From an uncultured Thermoleophilia bacterium (GTDB lineage Bacteria; Actinomycetota; Thermoleophilia; UBA2241), in NCBI GenBank assembly GCA_963784975.1, contig CAWAUK010000014.1, positions 1 to 32,000 on the forward strand: a stretch of DNA of 32,000 nt, written 5' to 3'. Positions 1-28,328 of the stretch are shown here, one piece after another. The notes under the pieces were generated by a model. It was not told where the DNA came from and searched no databases. It worked only from the letters and a program-made list of their open reading frames with translations. A program made the position numbers and the translations under genes. Position 1 is the stretch's first letter, and every line of letters begins with the position of its first letter.

Positions 1-519
1 GCGCAGGCGGAGTACGAGCGCTTCTACAGCACGCTCGGCGGCAAGCCTGTGCACGCCACGCTGGCGACGCACTGGGCGCGCCTCGTCGAGCTCCTCTACG
101 CGGCCGAGCGCGCCCACGAGCTTGCCACCGACCCGGAGATCATCGACCCGGCCGTCCGCAACATCCCGACCCGCATCGTGGGCGAGGGCGTCGGTGTGGT
201 CGAGGCTCCGCGCGGCACGCTCTACCACCACTACAAGACCGACGACAAGGGCATCGTCACCGCGGTCAACCTCATCGTCGGCACGACGAACAACAACGCC
301 GCCATCTCGATGTCGCTGAAGAAGGCCGCCGAGGGCATCCTCACCGGTGGCAACGAGATCCGCGAGGGGCAGCTCAACATGATCGAGATGGCGTTCCGCG
401 CCTACGACCCTTGCTTCGGCTGCGCCACGCACACGCTGCCCGGCGACATGCCGCTCGAGGTCACGGTCAAGAGCGAGGCCACGCGCGGCGTCATCGCCAG
501 CGTCAAGAGGAACATGTGA
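1..519 (+). CDS. [NiFe]-hydrogenase large subunit, C-terminal part (5' end outside window); cytoplasmic group-3-like
   Basis: The frame is open from nt 1. The translation contains GVVEAPRGTLYHHY and the C-terminal Ni-ligand motif DPCFGCATH, followed by a 28-aa extension (TLPGDMPLEV...KRNM) of the kind removed by the endopeptidase encoded next. The subgroup call is by resemblance only. Confidence 0.85.
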   Translation, partial: AQAEYERFYSTLGGKPVHATLATHWARLVELLYAAERAHELATDPEIIDPAVRNIPTRIVGEGVGVVEAPRGTLYHHYKTDDKGIVTAVNLIVGTTNNNAAISMSLKKAAEGILTGGNEIREGQLNMIEMAFRAYDPCFGCATHTLPGDMPLEVTVKSEATRGVIASVKRNM

Positions 520-989
520 CGCCGGGCTCCACGCTCGTCCTCGGCATGGGCAACCCGATCCTGTCTGACGATGGGGTCGGGTTGCTCGTCGCCGGGCGGC
601 TCGCCGGCGAATCGCTGCCCGACGGCGTGGAGGTGCGGCAGAGCGAAGTGGCGGGTCTTCGCCTGCTCGAACTTGTGCGCGGATTCACCCGCGTTATCAT
701 TATTGATGCGCTCAAGAGCCCCACTGAGGCCGGGCGCGAGCCCGGCGAGGTGATCCGGTACGAGGCCAAGGACTTCAAGGGCGGTCACCGCTACGGATCC
801 GCCCACTCCATAGGCCTCGACACGGTCCTTGAGCTCGGTCACAGACTCGGCTACGAGATGCCCGAGGAGGTCATCGTGTTCGCCATCGAGGCGGCAGACG
901 TAGAGACGTTCGGCGAGGAGCTCTCGCCGCCCGTGGCCGCGGCCGCCGAGCGGGTGCTCGACCTCGTCCGCCGTGAGGTGGGCGCGTGA
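516..989 (+). CDS. hydrogenase maturation endopeptidase (HycI/HoxW/FrhD family)
   Basis: GTG at 516 overlaps the large-subunit stop (ATGTGA). The product starts VTPGSTLVLGMGNPILSDDGVGLLV (GxGNxxxxDDGxG signature) and has the distal His region GSAHSIGL. The longer ORF from 411 overlaps the hydrogenase gene and was not used. Confidence 0.85.
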   Translation: MTPGSTLVLGMGNPILSDDGVGLLVAGRLAGESLPDGVEVRQSEVAGLRLLELVRGFTRVIIIDALKSPTEAGREPGEVIRYEAKDFKGGHRYGSAHSIGLDTVLELGHRLGYEMPEEVIVFAIEAADVETFGEELSPPVAAAAERVLDLVRREVGA

Positions 990-1912
990 CCGGCGAGCGC
1001 AGCCTGCCCAGCGAGCGGGGTTCCGCAGGCACGCCGCTCACGGGCGTCGGCATCGTCGCCTTCGTGACCCGCGGGCTGCCGGAGCTGCGCACCGCCCTGC
1101 GCGGCGTGCGTGAGACCGCCCCCTCGGGCGCGCAGATCGCCGTGGTCGCATCCGGCCTGGGTGACCAGGACGCGACCTACCTGCTCCGCCAGTACCTGCG
1201 CGGGCGCATCCACGCCCTGGACTTCGAGCACGGCGACGCGCACGGCAGCCACTGCGGTCTCGACCGCGCGTACCAGCTGGTGCGCGGCGACTACCTGGTC
1301 CGGGTGGACGATACGCTCGAGTTCCAGGCTGGGTGGCTCGAGCGCGCCGTCTCGGCCCTCGAAGCGGATCCGTCGCTCGGCTGCCTCTCGCTGGTCCCGC
1401 CGGACGACTACCACCGCGGCCGCGGCCGGCCGCGGACGGTCCACGTCGAGCCCGTCGTCGTCGACCACCTCGACATGCGCTGCTTCGTCGCGCCCCGCGA
1501 CCTGGTGGAGCGGCACGAGTGCGAGCTCATGGGCGAGCAGCCGGACGGCTGCCGCTTCCAGGAGTACCTGCGCGGCGACGGGCGCCGGCTCGCGTTCCTG
1601 CCCGGCCTCGTCAGCCGGCTGGGCCTCGTGGAGGTCCCGACGGGCTTCGACACCTGCAGCCCGGAGGCCGAGCTGCCCCTGCACGAGGGCGCCACCGGCG
1701 CCATGCAGCGCCTGGAGCAGGCCTATGACCTCGGCGACGACATCCTGCTCACCTGCCTGTCGTGCGGCGCATCTGAACTCGAGGTCCTCGCCGCCCGCAT
1801 CCGGTTCTGCGAGCGTCACCAGGTCGCCATCGGGTTCTGGTACGAACTGCGCTGCCCCGAGTGCGGCGAGCTGCACTACAAGGACGACTACCAGTTCCGC
1901 TGCCCGGACTAG
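986..1912 (+). CDS. hypothetical protein: GT-A (family-2 glycosyltransferase-like) domain plus C-terminal zinc ribbon
   Basis: The GTG start overlaps the protease stop (GTGA at 986-989). The N-terminal ~200 aa look GT-A-like (GIVAFVTRG..., IAVVASG..., LVRGDYLVRVDDT as a DxD-like element, ADPSLGCLSLV). The C-terminus has CLSCG...CERH...CPECG...C. I recognise no hydrogenase-maturation family. Confidence 0.6.
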   Translation: MTGERSLPSERGSAGTPLTGVGIVAFVTRGLPELRTALRGVRETAPSGAQIAVVASGLGDQDATYLLRQYLRGRIHALDFEHGDAHGSHCGLDRAYQLVRGDYLVRVDDTLEFQAGWLERAVSALEADPSLGCLSLVPPDDYHRGRGRPRTVHVEPVVVDHLDMRCFVAPRDLVERHECELMGEQPDGCRFQEYLRGDGRRLAFLPGLVSRLGLVEVPTGFDTCSPEAELPLHEGATGAMQRLEQAYDLGDDILLTCLSCGASELEVLAARIRFCERHQVAIGFWYELRCPECGELHYKDDYQFRCPD

Positions 1913-1930
1913 GGCAGGGGAGTCGGCAGT

Positions 1931-4483
1931 GTGAGCTCTTTCCGGCCCGACGATCGCCCGCTCGTCGCCGTCCGGATCAGCGTCCGCGGCGTCGTCCAGG
2001 GCGTCGGCTTCCGGCCCTTCCTCTACTCCCTGGCCCGGCGGTACGGGTTGCGCGGCTGGGTGCTCAACACTTCGGCCGGGGTGGAGGTGCTGGCGGAGGG
2101 CGCCCCGGATGCGGTGAGCGGGTTCGCCGAGGCGCTGACGGCGGAGGCGCCGCCGCGCAGTCACATCGCCGCCTGCGATGTGCGGGAGGTGGAGCCGGGC
2201 GCAGCCGTCGACGGCCCGGCGGCCGGTGAAGCGTTCGTCATCCTCGAGAGCCAAGCCGATCCCGGCGCCTACCAGCTGGTCTCGCCGGACATCGCGACCT
2301 GCGACGACTGCCGTCGCGAGCTGCTCGATCCGGCCGACCGGCGCCACGACTACCCGTTCACCAACTGCACCAACTGCGGGCCGAGGTTCACGATCATCGA
2401 GGACCTGCCGTACGACCGCGAGCGGACGACCATGCGGCACTTCCCGCTGTGCCCGGCCTGCCGGCGCGAGTACGAGGACCCGGGCGACCGGCGCTTCCAC
2501 GCCGAGCCGAACGCCTGCCCCGTGTGCGGTCCCCGCGTGCGGCTGCTCCGGCTGGATGCGGGCGGAGACGGCGTGATCGAGCTGGCCGCCGGCGGCGAAG
2601 CCGACCCGGCGGCGCCCGTCCGCGCGGCCGCCGATCTGCTCAGCGCCGGCGAGATCCTCGCCGTCAAGGGGCTCGGCGGCTTCCACCTCGCCTGTGACGC
2701 CACGGACGGCGAGGCGGTGCGCCGCCTGAAGCTGCGCAAGCGGCGCCTCGACAAGCCGCTCGCGGTCATGTTCGCCGGCCTCGATGAGCTGCGCGCGCAC
2801 TGTCGCGTCGGCTCCGAGGAGGCGGCGCTGCTCGCGTCGCCGGAGCACCCGATCGTGCTGCTGGAGTGGCGCGCGGTCGGGCTGTCGGGCGAGGCTGGCC
2901 CGCAGGCCGGCAGTGGAGACGGCGACCCGGTGGACCCGGAGGTCGCCGTGCGCCAGCGCTACCTCGGCGCGATGCTGCCGTACACGCCGCTCCACGTGCT
3001 GCTCCTGCGGGCCGCCGGCCGGCCGCTGGTGATGACCAGCGGCAACCTGGCGGAGGAGCCGATCGTCAAGGGCTGGGAGGAGATCGACCGGCTGACACCG
3101 ATCGCCGACGCCTACCTGGTGCACGACCGGGAGATCGCCGTGCGCTACGACGACTCCGTTGCGCAGGTGCGCGGTGGCGAGCCGCGGCTGATCCGCCGGT
3201 CCCGGGGCTACGCCCCCTTCCCGGTGGCCCTGCCGCGGCCGCTCCCGCAGACGCTGGCGGCCGGCGCCGAGCTCAAGAACACGTTCTGCCTCACGCGCGA
3301 CGCCAACGCGTTCCTCAGCCAGCACATCGGCGACCTCGAGAACCTGGAGACGCTGGAGCACTACGAGGCCAGCATCGAGGTGTACCGGCGCTTGTTCCGC
3401 CTTGACCCCGAGGTCGTCGCCTATGACCTCCACCCGGAGTACCTCGCGACCAAGTACGCGCTCGCGCAGCCGCAGGCGGAGAAGGTCGCCGTGCAGCACC
3501 ACCATGCGCACGTCGCGGCGCGGCTCATTGAGCACGGCAGGGAGGAGGCCGTCATCGGGGTCGGCATGGACGGCCTCGGCTACGGCCACGACGGCCGCCT
3601 GTGGGGCGGCGAGATCCTCGTCTGCGACCTCACCGGCTACCGCCGGGTCGCGCACTTCGAGGAGCTTCCGCTGCCCGGCGGCGCGGCCGCCATCGCGCAC
3701 CCCTGGCGGACCGCCCTCGGCTGGAGCTACGCGCTCCTCGGGCCTGAGGGGCTCGATCGCGCCGTCGGGCTCCTGAGCCGGGTCGGTGACGGCGGCGCGC
3801 AGACGGCTACCCCGCCGACCGACGAGGAGGTCTTGGCCGTGGTCCGCCAGATCGACCTCTCGGTCAACGCGCCGCTCACCACCAGCTGCGGCCGCCTGTT
3901 CGACGCCGTCGCTGCTCTGGCCGGCGTGCGCCGGTCCATCAGCTACGAGGGCCAGGCGGCGATCGAGCTGGAGATGATGGCGTCAGGTATGGAGCCCGAA
4001 GTGGAGCCCTACGACTGGACGCTTGACGGCGACGCCGAGCGCGCCGCGGCCGGCGAGCTGCGCGGCGCTTCAGACTGGGCGGCCGCCTGGCCTGCGGAAG
4101 CCGGCGCAGAGGCGGCTGCGCGCGCCGCGAGCCGAGCGCCGGCCGTCGTCCGCCTCGCTACGCTGTTCGACGGCGTCCTCGCCGACCTCGAGGCTGGGGC
4201 CGCGCCCGGCGTCATCGGGGCGCGGCTGCACGCCACCGTCGCGGACGTCGTGTACGACCTCTGCCGCCGGGTCCGTGCGTCCGGTGGCCCGTCCGCGGTC
4301 GCGCTCGCCGGCGGCGTGTTCCAGAACCGGCTGCTCGCCGAGCTGTGCGAGCGGCGGCTGGAGGCCGCCGGGTTCGAGGTGCTGGCCGCCGGGCTGGTGC
4401 CCGTCAACGACGGCGGCGTCTCGCTGGGGCAGGCGGCGGTCGCGGGCTATACTGTGCTCGAGCGCCGCGGGGAGCTTCGCTGA
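1931..4483 (+). CDS. hypF: carbamoyltransferase HypF
   Basis: 850 aa. It has an acylphosphatase-like N-terminus (VRGVVQGVGFRPF) and two CxxC-x18-CxxC zinc fingers (CDDC...CTNC and CPAC...CPVC). It also has a YrdC-like segment (KGLGGFHLACDA) and a Kae1-like segment (VQHHHAH). Confidence 0.95.
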   Translation: MSSFRPDDRPLVAVRISVRGVVQGVGFRPFLYSLARRYGLRGWVLNTSAGVEVLAEGAPDAVSGFAEALTAEAPPRSHIAACDVREVEPGAAVDGPAAGEAFVILESQADPGAYQLVSPDIATCDDCRRELLDPADRRHDYPFTNCTNCGPRFTIIEDLPYDRERTTMRHFPLCPACRREYEDPGDRRFHAEPNACPVCGPRVRLLRLDAGGDGVIELAAGGEADPAAPVRAAADLLSAGEILAVKGLGGFHLACDATDGEAVRRLKLRKRRLDKPLAVMFAGLDELRAHCRVGSEEAALLASPEHPIVLLEWRAVGLSGEAGPQAGSGDGDPVDPEVAVRQRYLGAMLPYTPLHVLLLRAAGRPLVMTSGNLAEEPIVKGWEEIDRLTPIADAYLVHDREIAVRYDDSVAQVRGGEPRLIRRSRGYAPFPVALPRPLPQTLAAGAELKNTFCLTRDANAFLSQHIGDLENLETLEHYEASIEVYRRLFRLDPEVVAYDLHPEYLATKYALAQPQAEKVAVQHHHAHVAARLIEHGREEAVIGVGMDGLGYGHDGRLWGGEILVCDLTGYRRVAHFEELPLPGGAAAIAHPWRTALGWSYALLGPEGLDRAVGLLSRVGDGGAQTATPPTDEEVLAVVRQIDLSVNAPLTTSCGRLFDAVAALAGVRRSISYEGQAAIELEMMASGMEPEVEPYDWTLDGDAERAAAGELRGASDWAAAWPAEAGAEAAARAASRAPAVVRLATLFDGVLADLEAGAAPGVIGARLHATVADVVYDLCRRVRASGGPSAVALAGGVFQNRLLAELCERRLEAAGFEVLAAGLVPVNDGGVSLGQAAVAGYTVLERRGELR

Positions 4484-4544
4484 GCGCGGCGCGCAGTCCG
4501 CAGTGCCCGTCCAGCCCGCCCAGACAGCGACAGGATCTTCGCCC

Positions 4545-4874
4545 ATGTGCCTCGCCCTTCCCATGCGCATCACCGCCCTCCACGGCGCCCTCGCGACGAT
4601 AGCCGTCGAGGGCCTCGAGCAGCAGTGCAGCGTCATGCTCGTGCCGGAGGCCGCCGTGGGCGACTACGTGCTGGTGCACGCCGGATTCGCCATCAGCGTC
4701 ATCGACGAGGCGGAAGCGCAGGAGACCTACGACCTCCTGCGCGAGATCGGCGCGTTCGACGAGGGTGACGACTTGCCGGCCGACGAAGGTGACGACGTCC
4801 CCGGCGGCCAGGTCGCCGGCCCAGAGGGCAGCGCCTCCGGCGACGATCCTGTGGGCGGCGATGACGGCCGCTGA
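4545..4874 (+). CDS. hypC: hydrogenase assembly chaperone HypC with long acidic C-terminal tail
   Basis: The ATG at 4545 gives the canonical N-terminus MCLALPMRI (Cys2). The ~70-aa HypC core is followed by a ~36-aa Asp/Glu/Gly-rich tail. The upstream part of ORF 4023..4874 overlaps hypF and is not protein-like. Confidence 0.85.
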   Translation: MCLALPMRITALHGALATIAVEGLEQQCSVMLVPEAAVGDYVLVHAGFAISVIDEAEAQETYDLLREIGAFDEGDDLPADEGDDVPGGQVAGPEGSASGDDPVGGDDGR

Positions 4875-5928
4875 CGACCTCGGCCGGCTCGCCGCCGAGC
4901 TACGTAAGGAGGCCGGGCCGGGCCTCACCTTCATGGAGGTGTGCGGCACGCACACCATGGCCATCGCCCGGTACGGGCTGCGCCAGCTGCTGCCAGAGGG
5001 CGTCCGCCTGGTCAGCGGGCCGGGCTGCCCGGTCTGCGTCACGGCGATGGCCGACCTCGACCGCGTGCTTGCGCTCGCCCGGCTGCCCGAGGTCACGCTG
5101 GTCACGTTCGGCGACCTCATCCGTGTGCCGGCGTCGCGCGGCACCCTGGCCGCGGAGCGCGCCGCCGGCGCCGACGTGCGCGTCGTGTATTCGCCGCGCG
5201 ACGCGGTGCGCATCGCGGCCGAGGAGCCGGAGCGGCAGGTCGTGTTCGCCGGCATCGGCTTCGAGACGACAGCACCCACCACGGCTGCGGCCCTGCTCGA
5301 GGCGCGCGCATCCGGCCTCGCCAACTTCAGTCTGCTGAGCCTGCACAAGACCATGCCGCTGCCGCTCCGCGCCCTCCTCGACCTCGGCGAGACGCCCATC
5401 AGCGGGTTCCTGCTGCCGGGGCACGTGAGCGTCATCACCGGGACCGCGTGCTACGAGTTCCTGGCCGGCGAGTACGGCATCGCCGGGGTGGTGGCGGGGT
5501 TCGAGGCGGGCGATGTCATGGAGGCGCTGCTCATGCTCGTGCGTCTGCCCGAGCCGAAGATCGTCATCCAGTACACGCGGGCGGTCCGTCCCGAGGGCAA
5601 CGTCGTGGCACAGCGCCTGCTGGAGCGGGTGTTCGAGCCGAGCGACGCCGCCTGGCGCGGCCTCGGCGTCATCCCCGGCTCCGGGCTTGCCCTCCGCGAG
5701 GAGTTCGCCGACGTGGACGCGGCACGCCGGTTCGTCGTCGACCCGGGCCCATCACTGGAGCCGCCGGGCTGCCGCTGCGGCGAGGTCCTGCGCGGCGTCA
5801 CCGACCCTGCCGACTGCCCCCTGTTCGCCGCGCGCTGCACACCGGAGGATCCCGTCGGTGCCTGCATGGTGAGCAGCGAAGGAGCCTGCGCCGCCCGGTA
5901 CCGCTTCAGAGGGATCGATGATGCCTGA
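4861..5928 (+). CDS. hypD: hydrogenase formation protein HypD
   Basis: Motifs present: MEVCGTHT, GPGCPVCVT, GFETTAPT and the C-terminal Cys cluster (PGCRCGEVLRG...CPLF...GACMVSSEGAC). The ATG at 4861 overlaps the hypC 3' end by 14 nt. Confidence 0.92.
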   Translation: MTAADDLGRLAAELRKEAGPGLTFMEVCGTHTMAIARYGLRQLLPEGVRLVSGPGCPVCVTAMADLDRVLALARLPEVTLVTFGDLIRVPASRGTLAAERAAGADVRVVYSPRDAVRIAAEEPERQVVFAGIGFETTAPTTAAALLEARASGLANFSLLSLHKTMPLPLRALLDLGETPISGFLLPGHVSVITGTACYEFLAGEYGIAGVVAGFEAGDVMEALLMLVRLPEPKIVIQYTRAVRPEGNVVAQRLLERVFEPSDAAWRGLGVIPGSGLALREEFADVDAARRFVVDPGPSLEPPGCRCGEVLRGVTDPADCPLFAARCTPEDPVGACMVSSEGACAARYRFRGIDDA

Positions 5929-6964
5929 GCGCCCCAGGCGGACCGGCGAGCGCGTCCTCCTCGGCCACGGCAGCGGCGGCAAGCTGTACCGCGACCTCGT
6001 CAAGGACGTCTTCGTCTCCGCGTTCTCCAACCCGGTGCTCGAGCGTCTCGACGACGCGGCCGCGCTGGCGCCGTCCGGCCGCGTCGCCTTCACCACGGAC
6101 GCGCACGTGGTGCAGCCGCTGCGGTTCCCCGGCGGCGACATCGGCCGTCTGGCCGTGGCCGGCACCGTGAACGACCTCGCGACGGCGGCGGCGCGGCCGC
6201 TGGCGCTCGCCGCCGCCTTCATCATCGAAGAGGGCTTCGCCGTGGACGACCTGCGCGCCGTCTGCGCCAGCATGGCGGCCGCGGCGCGCGAGGCGGACGT
6301 CCCCATCGTCACCGGCGACACCAAGGTGGTGGAGCGCGGCGCCGCCGACGGCCTGTTCATCACGACGACAGGCCTCGGAGAGATCGTCGTCGCGCACGAG
6401 CTCGGGTCGGCCGCAGTCCGCGACGGCGACGCCGTCATCCTGAGCGGAGCCATCGGCGACCACGCCGTCGCCATCCTGACGGCGCGCGGGGAGTTCGACT
6501 TCCGCGCAGACGTGCGGAGCGACTGCGCACCGCTCTGGGGCCTCGTCGAGGCCGCGCTGACGGCGGCGCGGGAGCACGGCGGGGAAGAGGCTGTCCGCTT
6601 CCTGCGCGATCCCACCCGCGGCGGCCTCACGACGGTGCTCGCCGAACTGGCGGAAGAGAGTGGCCTCGGGATCGAGGTCGAAGAAGCGGCGATCCCCGTC
6701 GCGCCGGCGGTGCGGTCGGTCTGCGACCTGCTCGGCTACGACCCGCTGACCCTGGCCAACGAGGGGAAGATGGTGCTGGTGACGGCGGCGGAGGCGGCGG
6801 ACGTCGTGGTCGCCGCCATCCGGACGACCGAGTACGGCAGCGAGGCGCGGCGGATCGGCTTCGTCGCCTCCGCGCACCCCGGCCGCGTCGCCCTGCGCAC
6901 GCCGTTCGGCACGCGCCGTGTGCTGGACATGCCGGTCGGCGAACTGCTGCCGCGGATCTGCTAG
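5918..6964 (+). CDS. hypE: hydrogenase maturation protein HypE (carbamoyl dehydratase)
   Basis: AIR-synthase-like protein with an N-terminal GHGSGG and the diagnostic C-terminal PRIC. Its start overlaps the hypD stop by 11 nt. Confidence 0.93.
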   Translation: MMPERPRRTGERVLLGHGSGGKLYRDLVKDVFVSAFSNPVLERLDDAAALAPSGRVAFTTDAHVVQPLRFPGGDIGRLAVAGTVNDLATAAARPLALAAAFIIEEGFAVDDLRAVCASMAAAAREADVPIVTGDTKVVERGAADGLFITTTGLGEIVVAHELGSAAVRDGDAVILSGAIGDHAVAILTARGEFDFRADVRSDCAPLWGLVEAALTAAREHGGEEAVRFLRDPTRGGLTTVLAELAEESGLGIEVEEAAIPVAPAVRSVCDLLGYDPLTLANEGKMVLVTAAEAADVVVAAIRTTEYGSEARRIGFVASAHPGRVALRTPFGTRRVLDMPVGELLPRIC

Positions 6965-14663: not shown

Positions 14664-15536
14664 ATGAAGAAGATCCTGCTGCAGCTCGACAGCGATCGCA
14701 CGGCGAGCGTGTTCGACGCAGTCACGGCCTACGACGCCGGTGCGGACGTGCTTCTTCAGCATGGCTCGGTGGAGCCGGCCGAGGTCCGTGCCATCGTCTA
14801 CGGCGCCATGTTCACGCGCGGCGGCGAAGACCTCAAGAGTTCGGCCGTGTTCATCGGCGGGGCCGACGTGGCCAAGGGCGAAGCCCTGCTCAAGGAGGCC
14901 TGCGGCGCCTTCTTCGGGCCGGTCCGGGTCTCCGTGATGCTGGATGCCAACGGGTGCAACACCACGGCGACCGCCGCCGTCGTCAAGCTTCTCTCCGCCG
15001 GCGATCTGCGCGGGAAGAAGACGGTCGTGCTGGCCGGCACCGGCCCGGTCGGCCGCAGGGCGGCCGGGCTCCTCGCGAAGGAAGGGGCGGACGTGGTCGT
15101 GGCCGAGACCCTGCCCACGGGGACGATGGAGCGGGCGAAGGACGCCTGCGCCACCATCGAGGAGCGCTTCGGGGTGCAGGTGACCCCCGCCGCCGCCGCC
15201 GACGCAGCCGCCACTGCGCGCGTGCTCGAGGGGGCGGAGGCGGTCCTCTGCACCGGCGCCGCCGGGCTTCAGCTGGTCTCTGAGACGATCTGGAGAGATC
15301 ACCCCACCCTGCGGGTGCTGGGCGACGTGAACGCCGTCCCACCGGTCGGCCTGGAGGGCACCAAGGCGACGTGGGACGGCAAGGACGTTGACGGCAAGAT
15401 CGTGTTCGGGGCTCTCGGCATCGGCAACCTCAAGATGAAGATCCACCATCGTTCCGTCGGACGGCTCTTCGAGCAGAACGACCTGGTCCTGGATGCGGAG
15501 GAGATCTTCGCCCTCGCCAAGGAGCTGGCGCAGTAG
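14664..15536 (+). CDS. mtdB: NAD(P)-dependent methylene-tetrahydromethanopterin dehydrogenase (MtdA/B/C family)
   Basis: 290 aa with GAGGGAGG upstream. The sequence has the MtdA/MtdB layout (MKKILLQLDSD...VFDAVTAYDAGAD..., Rossmann segment VVLAGTGPVGRRAA). Which paralogue it is cannot be decided by eye. Confidence 0.85.
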   Translation: MKKILLQLDSDRTASVFDAVTAYDAGADVLLQHGSVEPAEVRAIVYGAMFTRGGEDLKSSAVFIGGADVAKGEALLKEACGAFFGPVRVSVMLDANGCNTTATAAVVKLLSAGDLRGKKTVVLAGTGPVGRRAAGLLAKEGADVVVAETLPTGTMERAKDACATIEERFGVQVTPAAAADAAATARVLEGAEAVLCTGAAGLQLVSETIWRDHPTLRVLGDVNAVPPVGLEGTKATWDGKDVDGKIVFGALGIGNLKMKIHHRSVGRLFEQNDLVLDAEEIFALAKELAQ

Positions 15537-16773: not shown

Positions 16774-18410
16774 ATGATGCTCGGCATCCTCGGCGGGCGC
16801 GTCTACGACCCGCGAAACGGCAAGGACGGCGAGGTCGGCGACATCTGGGTGAAGGACGGCCGTGTGGTTGCGCCGGAGGACGTGGACCGAGAGTCGGCGC
16901 AGACCGTCGACGCCGCCGGCCTTGTGGTCATGCCCGGCGGCGTCGACATCCACGCGCACATCGCCGGCGGCGAGGTGAACTCTGGCCGCAAGCTTCAGCC
17001 TGAGGATCACCGCGGCCATGAGCGCGCGCGATCGGCCAACCTGCGCGCGGGCGCCGGAGGGATCGTCCCCTCCACCCACCTCACCGGGTATCTCTACTCC
17101 GAGCTCGGCTACACGACGGTGATGCAGGCGTCCGCCGCGCCGCTCGCGGCCCGGCACGTCCACGAAGAGCTCGAGGACGTGCCCAACATCGACAATGGCA
17201 CCTACATCGTGATGGGCAACAACCACTTCGTCATGCAATGCATCGCCGACAAGCAGCCCGAGAAGGCGCGCGACTATGTGGCCTGGCTCCTGCGAGCCAC
17301 CCGCGGCTACGCGATCAAGATCGTGAATCCCGGCGGCGTCGAGAACTGGAAGTGGGGCAAGAACGTCGCCGAGCTGGACGACGAGGTCATCGGCTACGGA
17401 GTCACTCCGCGACAGATCGTCCAGACCCTGGCTTCTATCGCCGACGATCTCGGCCTGCCGCACTCGATCCACGTCCACGGCATCAACCTGGGCCGGCACA
17501 CGAGCGCCAGAACGAGCATCGAGACGATGGCCGCCCTCACCGGGCATCGCCTGCATCTGTGCCACCTGCAGTTCCTGAGCTACGGGGCGGGACGCGGCCA
17601 CATCCACTCATCGGAGGCGGCCGCCGTCGCGGCGGCGGTCAATGCCAACCCGGAGTCACCGTCGACGTCGGACAGCTGATCTTCGGCGATGCCACGACGA
17701 TGACCTGTGACGGCCCTCTCCAGTACGCCCTCTACCAGACGACCGGCCACAGGTGGATCAACAGCGACGTGGAGAGCGAAACGGGCGGGGGGGTCGTGCC
17801 CATCGTCTACAAGCGCCCGCAATCCCATCAACGCGACGATGTGGCTCACCGGCATGGAGCTCTTCCTGCTGATCGACGACCCGTGGCGGGTCTTCCTGAG
17901 CACCGATCATCCCAACGCTGGTCCCTTCACCAGCTATCCACAGGTCATCAGGCTGCTCATGGACCGCGACTACCGGCGGGAGGTGTTCGAGAGCCTGCAC
18001 CCGCGTGCACGCCGAGGGAGCTCTGCTTCCGGAGCTGGACCGCGAGTACTCTCTCGGCGAGATCGCCGTCATCAGTCGCGCCGGTCCCGCACTGGCGCTC
18101 GGCCTCGAGCACAAGGGCCACCTGGGCGTCGGCGCCGACGGCGACATCGCCATCTATGAGGATCGCGCCGACAAGGAGGCGATGTTCGCCCGCCCGCGGT
18201 ACGTCTACAAGGGCGGCGAGCTCGTCGCACGCGACGGCGTCGTCGTCGCGGATAGTCCGCGGTCGCACGTTCGCAGTGGCGCCGGAGTACGACACAGGGA
18301 TCGAGGCCGAGCTACGCGAGTACTTCAAGGAGGCGTACACGGTCTCGTTCGACAACTTCTCGATGCTTGCCGGCCACGAAGCCCCCTTCGAGATCGTGGC
18401 CTGTCGCTGA
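16774..18410 (+). pseudogene. fwdA: formylmethanofuran dehydrogenase / formyltransferase-hydrolase subunit A (amidohydrolase), interrupted by four frameshifts
   Basis: Frame 1 holds MMLGILGGRVYDP...GGVDIHAHIAGG...AIKIVNPGG...HLCHLQFLSYG...AVNANP. A -1 shift near 17653 leads to frame 0: VTVDVGQLIFGDATTMTCDGP...GGGVVPIVYKR. A +1 shift near 17814-17818 leads to frame 1: [43 protein letters not shown]...HPR. A +1 shift near 18000-18012 leads to frame 2: [27 protein letters not shown]...[15 protein letters not shown]...DGVVVAD. A +1 shift near 18251-18254 leads to frame 0: [13 protein letters not shown]...EIVACR*. Confidence 0.85.
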
Positions 18411-21893: not shown

Positions 21894-22781
21894 ATGCATG
21901 TCAACGGAGTCGAGATAGAGGATACGTTCGCCGAGGCTTTCGGGATGTGGGGCTCACGCCTCGTGGTCACGGGCGAAGACATGGGCTGGGCCCGCACCGC
22001 CGCCGAGGCGGCGACGGGCTTCGCCACATCGATCATCGGCTGCGGCTGCGAGGCCGGCACCAACGACCTGGCGCCAGGCGAGGAGACGCCCGACGGGCGC
22101 CCCGGCGTGGCGGCGCTGGTGTTCACGACGTCGCGCAAGAACATGGAGACGGTGCTGCTGCAGCGCGTCGGCCAGGCGGTGATGACCTGCGCCACCTCGG
22201 CCTGCTACGACGGCCTTGCCGCCGATGAGAAGATCAAGGTGGGCGGCAAGCTCCGCTACTTCGGCGACGGCTTCCAGGGCAGCAAGCTGCTTGACGGACG
22301 CCGGCTGTGGCGCGTCCCCGTGATGGACGGCGAGTTCGTCGTGGAGGAGAGCTTCGGCGTTGCCAAGGCCGTCGGCGGCGGCAACTTCTTCATGATGGCG
22401 GAGAGTCTGAGCGCGGCGCTCGCCGCGGCCCAGGCCGCAGTGGTGGCGATGCGCGCCGTGCCCGGCGCCATCATGCCGTTCCCGGGAGGCGTCGTGCGGA
22501 GCGGCAGCAAGATCTCGTCGCGGTACAAAGGTCAGAACGTCTCCAGCAACACGCCCTACTGCCCGACGTTGCGCGCCGAGGAAGGCAGCGCCCTCAGAGA
22601 CGGCGAGAACGCGGTCCTGGAGATCGTCATCGACGGCCTCAGCGCCGCTTCGGTGGCGGAGGCCATGCGCGCGGGCATCGCCGCGGCCTGCCTTCCCGGC
22701 GTGACCCGCATCTCGGCCGGCAACTACGGCGGCTCGCTGGGGCCGTTCCACTTCGCACTGCGCGAACTGATGAGCGCGTGA
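21894..22781 (+). CDS. fhcD: formylmethanofuran:tetrahydromethanopterin N-formyltransferase (Ftr / FhcD)
   Basis: 295 aa with GGAGAGGAG upstream. The N-terminus MHVNGVEIEDTFAEAFGMWGSRLVVTG and the overall layout are typical of Ftr. Confidence 0.88.
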   Translation: MHVNGVEIEDTFAEAFGMWGSRLVVTGEDMGWARTAAEAATGFATSIIGCGCEAGTNDLAPGEETPDGRPGVAALVFTTSRKNMETVLLQRVGQAVMTCATSACYDGLAADEKIKVGGKLRYFGDGFQGSKLLDGRRLWRVPVMDGEFVVEESFGVAKAVGGGNFFMMAESLSAALAAAQAAVVAMRAVPGAIMPFPGGVVRSGSKISSRYKGQNVSSNTPYCPTLRAEEGSALRDGENAVLEIVIDGLSAASVAEAMRAGIAAACLPGVTRISAGNYGGSLGPFHFALRELMSA

Positions 22782-22791
22782 GGCGGCGGCG

Positions 22792-23571
22792 ATGGGATGC
22801 ATAGCATGTGCGGCTCTCGTCCTCGAAGGCGCCGGAGTGACGCTGACGCGCAGGGAATCGAGCAGACTTCCGGTGGTGGCGGAGAGCATCTGTCCTGATC
22901 GCTTCGTGGGTCTCGGGCTCACCGAGATCACCGAGCTCCCCGTCCTCAGCGGCGGCCGTGAAGTGCCGCTCGGCGACGTTTTCGACGTGGATGGGCCTGG
23001 GGCCCAGAACGTGACCGTGACGGGTGATCTCTCCAATGTGGAGAGCATCGGCCAGGGGATGACCATGGGCCGGCTGACCGTGTCGCGCGACGTTGGCCCG
23101 CAACTCGGCGCAGGAATGTCGGGCGGCGAGATCGTCGCGGAGCGCGCCGCCGGCGGGTCGGTGGGCGCAGGGATGTCGGGCGGACGCATCATCGTGCAGG
23201 GCGATGCCGGGCAGGCGGTGGGGTCGCACATGAGTGGCGGCCTCATCGTGGTGCTCGGCGACGCCGGCGAGGGGGCCGGCGCTGGAATGGTCGCCGGCTC
23301 GATCGTCGTCGGCGGTCGGCTTGCCGGGGCCCCGGGAGCGGGCATGAAGCGCGGCGCGATAGTCGCGTTCGGCGAGACGCCCGTGCCGGCGTCGACCTTC
23401 CGCTTCGCCGGCCTCGACCGGCCCGCGTTCCTGAGTTCTTGCCTCCCGGACCTGGAGGACACGGGTCTCGAAGGGTGCTCATGGATCACCGAAGGTGAGT
23501 TCCGGCGCTACGTGGGCGACATCGACAGCGGAGGCGAAGGGGAGGTCCTGGTCCTTGATCAGTCTCAATGA
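22792..23571 (+). CDS. fhcC: formylmethanofuran dehydrogenase subunit C-like (FhcC)
   Basis: Beta-helix glycine repeats: GAGMSGGEIVAE.., GAGMSGGRIIVQGDAG.., GSHMSGGLIVVLGDAG.., GAGMVAGSIVVGG. The start is uncertain (ATG 22792 or GTG 22837). Confidence 0.85.
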   Translation: MGCIACAALVLEGAGVTLTRRESSRLPVVAESICPDRFVGLGLTEITELPVLSGGREVPLGDVFDVDGPGAQNVTVTGDLSNVESIGQGMTMGRLTVSRDVGPQLGAGMSGGEIVAERAAGGSVGAGMSGGRIIVQGDAGQAVGSHMSGGLIVVLGDAGEGAGAGMVAGSIVVGGRLAGAPGAGMKRGAIVAFGETPVPASTFRFAGLDRPAFLSSCLPDLEDTGLEGCSWITEGEFRRYVGDIDSGGEGEVLVLDQSQ

Positions 23572-24520
23572 GAGCGCCTACACCGTCTTCGTGAGGCTGA
23601 GCGCAGCGGCCGAGGCCCTGGGCGTGATGGTGTCGACGCTGGACAACGGAGCGACGGTTCTCGACGCCGGCGTTGAGACGGGCGGCTCACTGGAAGCGGG
23701 CCGCCTGTTCTCCGAAGTCTGTCTGGGCGGCCTTGCCGACGTCCGTCTTCGCCAGATCCAACTGGATGACCTGGTGCTACCGGGGGTCGAGGTGAACGTC
23801 CATCGGCCGGTGCTGGCGTGCATGGCCTCGCAGTACGCCGGCTGGGCACTCAGTGTGCCGGCGACAGGCGCCTCGGAGAAGTACTTCGCCATGGGCTCCG
23901 GACCCGCGAGGGCGTTGTACCGGGGCGATCCCATCTTCGCCGACATCGAGTATCTCGACTCGGCGACGCTCGCCGTGCTGACGCTGGAATCGAACCGTCT
24001 GCCATCTGCTGAGGTGGCCGCCTGGGTGGCGGGCAAGTGTGGCGTGGCACCCGATCGTCTCTCGCTGCTCGTCGCGCCGACGGCATGCCTCGTGGGGTCG
24101 GTCCAGATCGCCGCGCGCATCGTCGAGACGGGGCTCCACAAGATGCATGAGGTGGGATTCGACCTGACCACCGTGAGTTCTGGCTTCGGCTCGTGTCCTC
24201 TCGCGCCGGTGGCGGCCGATGACCTCACGGCCATCGGCCGCACCAACGACGCGGTCCTCTACGGGGGCCGCGCCTGGTACACCGTGGAGACCGAGGACGA
24301 GCACATCGAGAGCGTCATCGAGCGCCTGCCGTCGGTTGCCTCGAGCGACTACGGAGTGCCCTTCGGGGAGCTCTTCCAGCGATACGGCGGTGACTTCTAC
24401 AAGATCGACCCTCTGCTGTTCAGCCCCGCCGAGATCACCATCACGAACAGCATGAGTGGCCGGACCTTCCACGCCGGCGCCGTCGACACCGCCATCCTCC
24501 GCGCTTCGTTGTTCACTTGA
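23555..24520 (+). CDS. mch: methenyl-tetrahydromethanopterin cyclohydrolase
   Basis: About 321 aa from TTG 23555, which has GGGGAGG 9 nt upstream and overlaps the fhcC end; GTG 23495 is an alternative. The sequence (ISLNESAYTVF...LDNGATVLDAGV...GSGPAR...) has the Mch layout. Confidence 0.85.
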   Translation: MISLNESAYTVFVRLSAAAEALGVMVSTLDNGATVLDAGVETGGSLEAGRLFSEVCLGGLADVRLRQIQLDDLVLPGVEVNVHRPVLACMASQYAGWALSVPATGASEKYFAMGSGPARALYRGDPIFADIEYLDSATLAVLTLESNRLPSAEVAAWVAGKCGVAPDRLSLLVAPTACLVGSVQIAARIVETGLHKMHEVGFDLTTVSSGFGSCPLAPVAADDLTAIGRTNDAVLYGGRAWYTVETEDEHIESVIERLPSVASSDYGVPFGELFQRYGGDFYKIDPLLFSPAEITITNSMSGRTFHAGAVDTAILRASLFT

Positions 24521-25476: not shown

Positions 25477-26334
25477 TCAGTGCGCCCCTTGAGGCGCCGC
25501 CGACGGCCCTTGCTCTCCCGGCGCCGCGGGCTGGCAGATCAGGATCTCCCCCTTGCCCAGCCAACAGGTGTCTCCTGTGAAGCGCCGGTAGGGGCCGCGC
25601 CAGCCGTGTTCAGGGGCCGGCACGCCACGCTTCTGAAGGTGTTCCGCGTAGACACGCAGGAAGGTAGGTTCGTATGTGCAGGCGTAGAGAAAGGTCGGCA
25701 GGAGATTGAGCGGCTCAAATGCCACGATCGTGCCTCTGGCCATCCAGGCGCCGGCACGGATGCCTGCCCTGCCGAACAGGAACAGGGTGCCCCCCTTCAT
25801 CTGCAAGCCTGCGAAGTCGCCCACCTGTCCCTGGATGCTGATGAGGCCTCGCAGCATCCGCATCCCGACCTCGATCCCCGCGCTGCCGTCGATCAGGATC
25901 TCGCCACCCCGCATGCCGACGGTGCTCCCACGATAGGCCGCGCCGACCTGCCCGCCGGCGCTGCCGTGGATGCGGATCAGGCCGCCGGTCATCTCCGCGC
26001 CGAGCCAGTCCGCGGCGTCCCCCTCGACCGTGATCGTCCCGCCGGTCATGTACGCTCCCAGGTGCATCCCCACGTTCCCCCGGATCACGATGCTGCCCTG
26101 GGTCATGCCGCGGCCGATCCACTTCACCTGAGCGAGGTTCCCGCGCAGTTCGAGAGCGGCGCTCTTCTCGCCCTCCACCTCGAAGAAGTCGCCCAGGCGG
26201 CGCCGTCGATTGCCCAGGTAGACCGGCTGCTCCAGGATCTCGGCGTGCCCCATCTCCCTGAGGTTGTCGGGCGAGAGCGCCTCGACTTCGAGAGGCGTCA
26301 TCAGCTCTTCCTTGAGCGTCGCCACGACGGTCAC
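25477..26334 (-). CDS. fwdC: formylmethanofuran dehydrogenase subunit C (second paralogue)
   Basis: 285 aa. The N-terminus VVATLKEELMTPLEVEALSPDN aligns by eye with methanogen FwdC N-termini. Repeats: GAYMTGGTITVEGDA, GAEMTGGLIRIHGSAG, MRGGEILIDGSAG. It starts 24 nt downstream of fwdB. Confidence 0.88.
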   Translation of the reverse strand: MTVVATLKEELMTPLEVEALSPDNLREMGHAEILEQPVYLGNRRRRLGDFFEVEGEKSAALELRGNLAQVKWIGRGMTQGSIVIRGNVGMHLGAYMTGGTITVEGDAADWLGAEMTGGLIRIHGSAGGQVGAAYRGSTVGMRGGEILIDGSAGIEVGMRMLRGLISIQGQVGDFAGLQMKGGTLFLFGRAGIRAGAWMARGTIVAFEPLNLLPTFLYACTYEPTFLRVYAEHLQKRGVPAPEHGWRGPYRRFTGDTCWLGKGEILICQPAAPGEQGPSAAPQGAH

Positions 26335-26358: not shown

Positions 26359-27708
26359 TCACGAAGTGTCTTCCTCAGCGGCGGGTCCCGGGCCATTCTG
26401 CGCCGTCCCGGCGTTGCCATGTGGTGCCCTGGCCGCTACCGCCTCGAGGATCCGGCCCATCACCTCCTCATCGGTCGGGTAGGGAGACCGCAGCGACGGC
26501 CGGGCTCGCAGGGGAACCTCGTCCATCCGGTAGACCGTGCCCGGGGCGCTGATGCCGGTCACGGCGGTGGTGATGTGGACGCGAGCGAGCTTGCTGGTGT
26601 GGGTGACCTTCGGGTCCAGCACGATCGTCGGCACCCGGGCCATGTGGTCGATCGCCGGCTTGGGCATCGTCGCTCCGGGATCCGCGGCCAGCACCAGCAC
26701 GGCGTCGACCTCGCCGCGGGTCAACAGGTCGATCGTGGTGTATTCGCCGGGGTTGTAGCGAGGGTAGCCTCGGCTGAAGTCGACGCCGAACGGATACCCG
26801 GTCAGCCAGCTCGTGACGGCATCAGCGCCCGTCACGTTGCCGTGACCGCGGAGCGGCATCGATACGAAGCGGGTGAACTCGTTCATCTCCACGCCCAACG
26901 TCAGCATCGCCGCCGCGTTCATGAACTTGCCGCGAGTCATGGTCAGTCCCATCCCGAAGAACATCGCCCCGTAGCTGGCGCGCTTCATGCGGTCCGCCAG
27001 GTCCTGGAGCTGCTCCAGGGTGAGACCCGTCTCCTCCAGGCGCTCCCGGTCGACGCGACGACCCTTGACCAGGGCGCGGAGGGCCGTCAGCGCCTCAAAA
27101 TCCCTGGCCGGGCGGATCTGCAGGAAGATGTCGGCGATACGCGAACTCGGCGTCTTGCGGACGTCGACCACGACTACCGTCCGCCCCTTGCGGCCCTCGG
27201 GCGTGTATTTGCCTTTCGGGGTCACGGAGTACCGTGTGAAGTGGCGGGGATGGCACTCTGCGGGATTCGCGCCCCAGAGAATGACGAGGTCTGCTCGATC
27301 CTTTATCTCGCCCAGCGTAGCCTTTGACCTACCGCCCAACTGGGCAGCCATTTCACTGGGGCCGTGTCACAACGAGGAGTGGCTGTCGACCACGCCGCCA
27401 AGCCGCTCGGCCAGCGACACAGCCTCGCGCTGGGTCTCGCTGGTGGTATTGCTGAGGCCGTAGATGAGCGGGTAATGAGCGTCGACGAGGAAGTCGGCTG
27501 CCAGCGCCACGGCCGCGTCCAGCGAGGCCGGCTGCCCGTCGATCAGCGCCGGCGGATAGTGCGCCTCGGCGGAATGGTTGGTGAACCAGGCTCCCCCCAG
27601 GGCGCAGGCGTGCCTGGCCTTGACGATGCGATCTCCCTCGGTATGGACTTCGATGTCATCGCAGACGCAGCCGCAGAACGTACACACCGCGTTGCTCACA
27701 ACAGCCAT
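26359..27708 (-). CDS. fwdB: formylmethanofuran dehydrogenase subunit B, selenocysteine-containing (in-frame UGA at 27369..27367)
   Basis: ORFs 27367..27708 and 26359..27351 are in the same frame and are separated only by a TGA. The read-through is 450 codons. The N-terminal Fe-S motif is CTFCGCVCDD. The UGA sits in ...VVDSHSSL-U-HGPSEMAAQLG, matching the Cys/Sec active-site context (U/C-HGPS) of the FwdB/formate dehydrogenase family. GGAGGAG lies 6 nt before the ATG at 27708. Confidence 0.8.
27331..27348 (-). promoter_or_regulatory. candidate bacterial SECIS hairpin
   Basis: The mRNA sequence GCUGCCC-AGUU-GGGCGGU (7-bp stem including G-U pairs, GU in the loop) begins 18 nt after the UGA. 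The distance is within the range described for bacterial SECIS elements. Not energy-evaluated. Confidence 0.45.
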
Positions 27709-27776
27709 GGCTCGCTCCTCCGTCGATCAGGTGATCGATGTCACGGTGCGCCCGCACGGGGCGCAGCTCTGAATGC

Positions 27777-27956
27777 TCACCCCAACGCTCCGCCGCGGAA
27801 ACTGCCGCGGACGCGGCGCGGCAGCCACAGATCGTCCCCGATCGCTTCCCACGCCGGGACCTCCTCGTCATGGGGCGACGTCTCCGGCTCGCGACGGGGC
27901 CGCTCGGGCTGGCTCGGCTGGTGGTCCGAAGCTCGTGATGTGTCCAAGATCACCAC
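27777..27956 (-). CDS. possible 59-aa ORF between fwdD and fwdB
   Basis: It is below the ORF-track cutoff. GAAAGGAG immediately follows the fwdD stop, then GTGGTG. Product: VVILDTSRASDHQPSQPERPRREPETSPHDEEVPAWEAIGDDLWLPRRVRGSFRGGALG. No family recognised, and it could simply be spacer. Confidence 0.25.
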   Translation of the reverse strand: MVILDTSRASDHQPSQPERPRREPETSPHDEEVPAWEAIGDDLWLPRRVRGSFRGGALG

Positions 27957-27965
27957 GCTCCTTTC

Positions 27966-28328
27966 CTAGACTCCGGGGCGGTCACCCGGCGGCTCGTGGT
28001 CCGGTGCCGGATCGACGTCGACCTCCCAGTTCTTCTGAGAAGGCATCCCTGTGCCGTCGGTATCCCCTGACATCAGCTGACAGGTCGGCGGCCCATAGGG
28101 GACGAAGACCATCCCGGGAGGAAGATCACCCTCCGCGCACCTGTACACCGCCTCACCCCAGTCGCTGCGCACACGGACCGACATGCCGGGGGCAAGCCCC
28201 AGTTGAGCGAGATCCTGTGGGTTCATGTCCAGGGTGCTGACGACCGCCAGGTACTCGTCCCTGAGCTTGCCCATGTTCTCCTGCTGGCCCTGCTTGATGG
28301 TCCGACCGGCGATGAACACACAGCGCAT
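27966..28328 (-). CDS. fwdD: formylmethanofuran dehydrogenase subunit D (molybdopterin-dinucleotide-binding domain)
   Basis: 120 aa with AAGGGGG 5 nt upstream. The sequence FIAGRTIKQGQQ...LGLAPGMSVRVRSDWGEAVYRC...GMVFVPYGPP...TDGTGMPSQKNWEVDV matches the FwdD layout. Confidence 0.85.
   Translation of the reverse strand: MRCVFIAGRTIKQGQQENMGKLRDEYLAVVSTLDMNPQDLAQLGLAPGMSVRVRSDWGEAVYRCAEGDLPPGMVFVPYGPPTCQLMSGDTDGTGMPSQKNWEVDVDPAPDHEPPGDRPGV

Follow-up and report, generated by a model that had tools for sequence, protein, structure and literature searches.

The window analysed here, a stretch of 32,000 nucleotides from an uncultured Thermoleophilia bacterium (Actinomycetota; positions 1 to 32,000 of contig CAWAUK010000014.1, assembly GCA_963784975.1), carries on its minus strand a gene for subunit B of formylmethanofuran dehydrogenase, fwdB, whose reading frame is interrupted by a TGA. 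This TGA, at 27369..27367, separates an open reading frame (ORF) of 113 amino acids (27367..27708) from a second one of 330 amino acids (26359..27351), and is followed by a short hairpin that resembles a selenocysteine insertion sequence (SECIS). The gene lies between fwdD and fwdC, in an island of one-carbon (C1) genes related to tetrahydromethanopterin (H4MPT) and methanofuran (Table 1). The TGA is very probably a genuine selenocysteine (Sec) codon, and the residue it encodes would bind the metal of a formylmethanofuran dehydrogenase of the redox-active type.

Table 1. Features of the fwdB locus and of the surrounding C1 island (positions in the window)
Feature	Position	Strand	Description and basis
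fwdB	26359..27708	minus	449-residue read-through ORF, Sec predicted at residue 114
UGA codon	27367..27369	minus	Predicted Sec (U114) and tungsten (W) or molybdenum (Mo) ligand, followed by His115; alignment column
SECIS-like hairpin	27331..27348	minus	7-bp stem GCUGCCC/GGGCGGU, apical loop AGUU; fold and conservation
Hairpin, 5' arm	27348-27342	minus	GCTGCCC
Hairpin, loop	27341-27338	minus	AGTT
Hairpin, 3' arm	27337-27331	minus	GGGCGGT
N-terminal [4Fe-4S] motif	27655..27684	minus	CTFCGCVCDD, C9-x2-C12-x3-C16, residues 9-18
Fourth [4Fe-4S] cysteine, C35	27604-27606	minus	fwdB translation
fwdB terminator	26361..26359	minus	TGA
fwdD	27966..28328	minus	Cap subunit that binds the molybdopterin dinucleotide, 120 aa; opens the operon; PF01568, 50.5 bits
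fwdC	25477..26334	minus	GXGXG beta-helix subunit; TIGR03122, 264.7 bits (cut-off 130.65); PF01493
fwdA/fhcA	16774..18290	plus	Amidohydrolase subunit, sole copy found in the genome; TIGR03121 matches N-terminal half
mtd	14664-15536		C1 island, H4MPT/methanofuran
ftr	21894-22781		C1 island
Second C-like subunit	22792-23571	plus	Divergent; weak GXGXG match, 30.6 bits
mch	23495-24520		C1 island

The read-through frame, its active-site column and the hairpin

Read through the TGA (VVDSHSSL-U-HGPSEMAAQLGG around residue 114), fwdB yields a protein that fits the model of formylmethanofuran dehydrogenase subunit B, TIGR03129, over its entire length (model positions 1-421 of 421; 500.7 bits for a cut-off of 327.8), and the solved FwdB chains 9sfi_Q, 8rja_B and 5t5i_B match it end to end with E values of 1e-109 to 1e-115. 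The cysteines C9, C12, C16 and C35 are invariant in an alignment of 99 FwdB sequences, as are H115 and R287, the latter being what we take to be the catalytic arginine of the active site described with the Methanothermobacter wolfeii structure. Methylotrophs possess a related subunit, FhcB, which is not known to have a redox site or a FwdD partner. An FhcB identity was rejected here: FhcB of Methylorubrum (6s6y_B, 361 amino acids) matches residues 235-415 only, with an E value of 4.6e-15, against the full-length matches of true FwdB chains. These comparisons support the assignment of the predicted product to the redox type rather than to the FhcB type. They bear out a reading of the window made from its letters alone (hereafter the sequence-only reading), which had joined the two adjacent minus-strand ORFs into one frame split by the TGA, with correct coordinates, and had judged the enzyme to look redox-active on account of its Fe-S motif and of an upstream FwdD gene, both of which are found.

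The same reading had assigned the UGA to the Cys/Sec column of the metal ligand, and this is where the read-through protein places it when aligned with FwdB sequences. When aligned with the solved chains, U114 falls on the Cys of 8rja_B and on the X of 9sfi_Q. Across the 99 bacterial FwdB sequences (window included), the column holds U in 78 cases and C in 15, the remainder being T (3), S (2) and G (1). Hosts of the U-bearing sequences are Planctomycetota, Acidobacteriota, Chloroflexota and Rokubacteria bins, together with Actinomycetota, Binatota, Gemmatimonadota and Pseudomonadota bins, which makes at least seven phyla, and a TGA at this column occurs in about 80 bacterial genomes. The genes concerned are hereafter called Sec-type (as opposed to Cys-type). 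Over the whole read-through ORF, the ratio of nonsynonymous to synonymous substitution rates (dN/dS) between the window and seven orthologs ranges from 0.09 to 0.25, a sign of purifying selection. The window gene combines two marks of a bacterial selenoprotein, an alternation of Sec and Cys in one column and coding conservation on both sides of it.

The stem of the hairpin starts 18 nt after the UGA and its AGUU loop 25 nt after it, exactly where the sequence-only reading had seen a plausible bacterial SECIS. The hairpin belongs to the minimum-free-energy fold of the window sequence, and in isolation has an energy of about -11.4 kcal/mol. Searches of the bSECISearch type look for an apical loop located about 16-37 nt from the UGA, with a G among the first loop bases; by its distance and by the G and U in its loop, the window hairpin is a candidate of this kind. 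The codons that form it hardly vary. Throughout the 80 Sec-type genes, Leu +10 is encoded by TTG and Gln +9 by CAG without exception (80/80 each), while Ala +8 is GCC in 77 and Gly +11 is GGY in 75; at control Leu codons outside the hairpin, TTG is used in 28 of 80 genes (position -1) and in 9 of 80 (position +18). RNAalifold, applied to 78 distinct Sec-type sequences, recovers exactly the 7-bp stem with its 4-nt loop, and the hairpin is present in the minimum-free-energy fold of 66 of the 80 Sec-type genes versus one of nine Cys-type genes. This comparative evidence strengthens the case for a SECIS. A scan of region 27150-27450 against Rfam at E values up to 10 returned one chance match to a small nucleolar RNA and nothing else that reached threshold; none of the curated families that would mark a bacterial SECIS is therefore recognised in the region.

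The single hairpin-forming Cys-type gene, from a Gemmataceae genome (L039, CAWDRY010000022.1), has TGC at the active-site codon followed by the full hairpin (GCTGCCCAGTTGGGCGGC). In the tree it falls within a group of Sec-type genes, which suggests that Cys replaced Sec recently and that the hairpin is a relic SECIS.

Selenium machinery and competing explanations of the TGA

The host genome (G000) is a metagenome-assembled genome (MAG) of 3.6 Mb in 77 contigs, 83% complete and with 5.9% contamination. All the components of Sec insertion that were looked for are present: selB (312.6 bits), selA (529.7 bits) and selD (318.9 bits) exceed curated cut-offs and are clustered on contig C41, and two genes for tRNA-Sec, at C41:7-100 and C45:3733-3826, score 65.9 and 64.9 bits, again above cut-off, with a TCA anticodon according to ARAGORN (loci L001, L007, L008 and L012 on C41, L011 on C45). 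The second tRNA-Sec gene, on C45, could be a true duplicate or a contamination of the bin. The genome contains other signs of Sec usage. Its selD is itself Sec-containing (KSGUAAKLG), and an FdhA-like molybdopterin enzyme (L117, C48:41709-43127) has an in-frame TGA in the motif HCARTUHAPT, which makes it a predicted third selenoprotein gene of the host.

A more conventional explanation is that the TGA is a true stop, leaving a 113-residue Fe-S piece and a 330-residue C-terminal piece restarting at the ATG at 27351. Gene callers do split fwdB at this point, its closest matches in databases (87-100% identity) are only 330-339 amino acids long and thus fragments, and the window has an ATG six codons past the TGA. 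Such a stop, however, would fall exactly on the catalytic Cys column and deprive both pieces of the metal ligand, and codon +6 is ATG in only 3 of 80 orthologs, being mostly ATA, ATC or ATT, so that a restart here is not conserved. On these two grounds, a real division into two genes is unlikely. With the TGA and the hairpin conserved across about 80 orthologs and a complete Sec machinery in the genome, we consider termination at this codon very improbable.

Alternatively, the TGA could result from an assembly or sequencing error, the true codon being TGC or TGT, or from a recent inactivating mutation in a decaying gene. The fwdA gene of the same island, which is spread over at least three frames, gives some substance to this view; its breaks and those seen elsewhere are nevertheless indels rather than substitutions, and a single frame of fwdB covers the whole of its model. 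Sequencing error is unlikely because the same TGA is found in independent assemblies, at 65-90% protein identity, and the dN/dS values given above are not those of a decaying gene. This explanation, too, deserves very little weight. As for a readthrough of the UGA by something other than Sec-tRNA(Sec), such as a near-cognate Trp or Cys tRNA or a reassigned code, it is hardly credible even though readthrough alone does not name the inserted residue, since fwdB itself ends at a TGA, which shows that this codon keeps its usual meaning in the genome, homologs have Cys at the column in a classic Sec/Cys pair, and a position-specific hairpin accompanies the Sec machinery.

The interpretation of the TGA as a Sec codon has its own weak points. 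The link between fwdB and the Sec machinery depends on binning, as the machinery lies on another contig of the MAG. Of five other genomes with a Sec-type fwdB, two (MAGs that are 82% and 68% complete) yielded no selA. The folding analysis suggested by the sequence-only reading gave a divided result: the hairpin does appear in the minimum-free-energy structure, but the energy of the single-sequence fold (27300-27372) is not better than that of shuffled sequences (z = -0.59), and Cys-type genes adopt different folds of equal or greater stability. As fold energy alone does not single out the hairpin, the comparative codon constraint was used instead, and it is only through its conservation across orthologs that the hairpin rises beyond chance. 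A compensatory change was seen in one case only, L022, where an Ala to Ser replacement in the 5' arm and a GGC to GGA change in the 3' arm turn a G-C pair into a U-A pair; classic covariation is nearly impossible here because wobble bases in the stem face codon positions that cannot vary. Finally, a functional complex in this host is not assured, the only fwdA being frame-broken in the assembly.

Operon context and proposed function

The fwdD product, in addition to its Pfam match, scores 77.6 bits against the FwdD model NF042908, which is below that model's archaeal exception-level cut-off. In almost every Sec-type locus, FwdD immediately precedes FwdB. In the window, the two genes are separated by a gap of 257 nt (27709-27965) that contains only short ORFs without obvious homology, and fwdC follows 24 nt downstream of fwdB. 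Most Sec-type loci have the order fwdD-fwdB-fwdA-fwdC; in the six-sequence clade of the window, described below, the order is fwdD-fwdB-fwdC.

FwdB has two intact partner subunits next to it, FwdD and FwdC, and a lone FwdA at a distance, encoded 9 kb from the operon and frame-broken in the assembly. The pieces of fwdA lie in different frames (16786-18024, with two TGA codons inside, 17646-17816 and 18002-18283), the frame switching near 17650, 17820 and 18005, and only one of the breaks is near a homopolymer (G7 at 17787). The gene is intact in the relatives G019 and G028, and its breaks in the window may be either assembly indels or decay. A second, divergent C-like subunit adjoins ftr and mch and is distinct from the fwdC that stands next to fwdB; the presence of both suggests two complexes sharing one A subunit. 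The C1 island further includes DHPS-like, DUF1464, mptN, CitG-like, HisA-like and ATP-grasp genes. Upstream of it lies a hydrogenase maturation set (HycI-like protease, HypF, HypD and HypE-like; 3-6964, plus strand).

From the arrangement of codon, hairpin and machinery, we infer that Sec is inserted at codon 114: SelB loaded with Sec-tRNA(Sec) would bind the AGUU-loop hairpin and deliver Sec at this codon, where termination would otherwise occur. In the resulting enzyme, Sec114 would ligate W or Mo and form, with His115 and Arg287, the formate/CO2 redox site on a bis-pyranopterin cofactor, for which FwdD would provide the capping domain. Cys9, Cys12, Cys16 and Cys35 would bind a [4Fe-4S] cluster, and electrons would exit through this N-terminal cluster. 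Hydrolysis of formyl-methanofuran would take place at FwdA and yield formate, which FwdBD would oxidise to CO2. For the M. wolfeii enzyme, a tunnel model has reportedly been derived from the structure, and the route proposed here is that model run in reverse.

The most likely role of the enzyme is to complete formaldehyde oxidation, the formyl group of formyl-methanofuran being oxidised to CO2 in this final step; this is suggested by the C1 island around the gene, which also contains mtd, fwdA, ftr, mch and genes for cofactor synthesis. The metal (W or Mo), the catalytic direction and the electron acceptor we infer likewise. A Sec-type Fwd would imply a direct oxidation of formyl-methanofuran to CO2 and a dependence on selenium and on W or Mo, in contrast to the Fhc route of methylotrophs, which releases formate. 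A different organisation can be imagined, since in the small clade of the window (Thermoleophilia, two Chloroflexota and one Acidobacteriota) fwdA has been lost from the operon while an Fhc-like set (the lone fwdA/fhcA, ftr and the second C-subunit) coexists with it: Sec-FwdBD(C) could be a detachable selenium-dependent formate/CO2 module that docks on a hydrolase-type Fhc or takes formate from it. Such a hybrid may join the architectures of archaeal Fwd and methylotroph Fhc. We hold this arrangement to be rather unlikely.

Known relatives and taxonomic distribution

The sequence-only reading had expected a bacterial Sec-containing Fwd to be unusual, an expectation that was not supported. About 80 bacterial genomes have the TGA, as stated above, and Sec-fmdB had already been reported by Kim et al. 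2016 (PLoS One, PMC4807772) in Rhodopirellula sp. P2 and two unclassified bacteria, with an fmdD-fmdB-fmdA-fmdC operon and with glycine-containing homologs in other Planctomycetes. The family is also marked as present in both bacteria and archaea in two reviews (PMC9312934 and PMC13188914), the text of the latter discussing only methanogens. As bacterial Sec-FmdB was reported in 2016, nothing already known is changed by the window. In the literature that we searched, no paper combines Thermoleophilia with this C1 pathway. The new points are small: a Thermoleophilia host, which extends the taxonomic range of the enzyme to this class, an operon without fwdA, and a quantified constraint on the SECIS.

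The fmdB genes of Kim et al. are the closest parallel: their Cys/Sec position is likewise encoded by an in-frame UGA, they share the H4MPT C1 context, the upstream FwdD and the Sec machinery, and the window protein falls in the same large Sec-type clade; the differences lie in the host, here a MAG from the Actinomycetota, and in the absence of fwdA from the operon. Archaeal FwuB (Methanopyrus kandleri, Methanococcus; Vorholt et al. 1997, cited in PMC13188914) shares with the window protein its TIGR03129 membership, the UHxP motif and the occurrence of Sec/Cys isoenzyme pairs. The archaeal SECIS is, however, located in the 3' untranslated region and served by a different machinery, whereas the window hairpin lies within the ORF and comes with SelA and SelB; the direction of the window enzyme is moreover probably oxidative rather than CO2-reducing.

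Compared with solved FwdB structures (5t5i_B/5t5m from the M. wolfeii FwdABCDFG complex, 8rja_B and 9sfi_Q), the window protein has the same [4Fe-4S] cysteines, ligand position, His115 and RGH motif. Those chains are archaeal, and 8rja_B carries Cys. No FwdF/G polyferredoxin was seen near the window operon, where no systematic search for one was made. FhcB of Methylorubrum extorquens (6s6y_B) is homologous over the C-terminal half and takes part in a bacterial, H4MPT-linked formaldehyde oxidation, but has 361 residues for 449 in the window protein, which possesses the cysteines of the Fe-S cluster and the Sec-His pair and has fwdD as a neighbouring gene. With Escherichia coli FdhF, the likeness lies in the U-H-G-P-S motif and in an in-ORF hairpin with G and U in its loop, which in FdhF is read by SelB. 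A weak alignment of residues 106-211 with residues 132-231 of FdhF (1aa6_A, E value 3.7e-7) puts U114 at Sec140 by offset. FdhF nevertheless belongs to another, distant enzyme family, the sequence of its hairpin is unrelated, and AGUU is not the fdhF loop.

The nearest public entries, named formylmethanofuran dehydrogenase subunit B, are cut at the TGA, so that redox-active Fwd is under-called or mistaken for broken genes. This concerns bacterial MAGs from soil and freshwater; the Sec codon is routinely missed. The invariant CCC-AGUU-GGG core could serve as a simple marker for finding Sec-type fwdB genes.

The closest relatives of the locus are found in MAGs labelled as uncultured Thermoleophilia, at 86-90% identity. 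Among 400 genomes drawn evenly from the phylum, only two others had FwdB homologs (E values up to 1e-40), both of the same class and with identities, 49% and 37%, below the level of the Sec-type clade; the Sec column was not read in the 37% homolog. Two lineages are present in the genus of the window. The Sec-type lineage is represented in G000, G033, G028, G012 and G019, and the Cys-type lineage, at about 50% identity and with the motif SSVCHGPTG, in many species, G028 having both types. A TGA noted in the group at about 50% identity was rejected as a Sec codon, as it is the normal C-terminal stop and the active-site column is Cys.

In a quick maximum-likelihood tree (IQ-TREE, LG+G4, with support from the Shimodaira-Hasegawa-like approximate likelihood ratio test and a midpoint root used for drawing only), the window pairs with G033 (support 100). 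This pair lies in a clade of six sequences with two Chloroflexota and one Acidobacteriota (support 99). The clade is in turn part of the Sec-type clade (support 100), where Planctomycetota and Acidobacteriota predominate. Cys-type sequences from Thermoleophilia are on the other side of the tree, together with Cys-type members of the Chloroflexota, Burkholderiales and Caldinitratiruptor. Such a placement suggests that the Sec-type module was acquired laterally, next to a Cys-type lineage that was already resident.

Sec-type genes are scattered among bacteria and not dominant. The idea of a dominant Sec form, which arose from the list of the 80 best matches, a list biased toward the query, was rejected on the basis of an even sample of 301 Planctomycetota genomes, where 17 have any FwdB/FhcB homolog and 5 of these a Sec-type one.

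Other residues at the active-site column were observed close to Sec-type genes. Two Gemmataceae loci (L091 and L097) and one from Acidobacteriota (L046) have a second FwdB paralog with Thr (SLTHG) near the Sec-type copy, and Ser and Gly forms (P0009, P0014 and P0031) group with the Thr forms near the Sec clade. This proximity suggests that non-redox forms may have arisen from the Sec/Cys lineage. A Caldilineaceae MAG (G444, with locus L032) has three FwdB genes: a Sec-type gene with 78% identity to that of the window, and two others without internal stop, at 58-60% identity.

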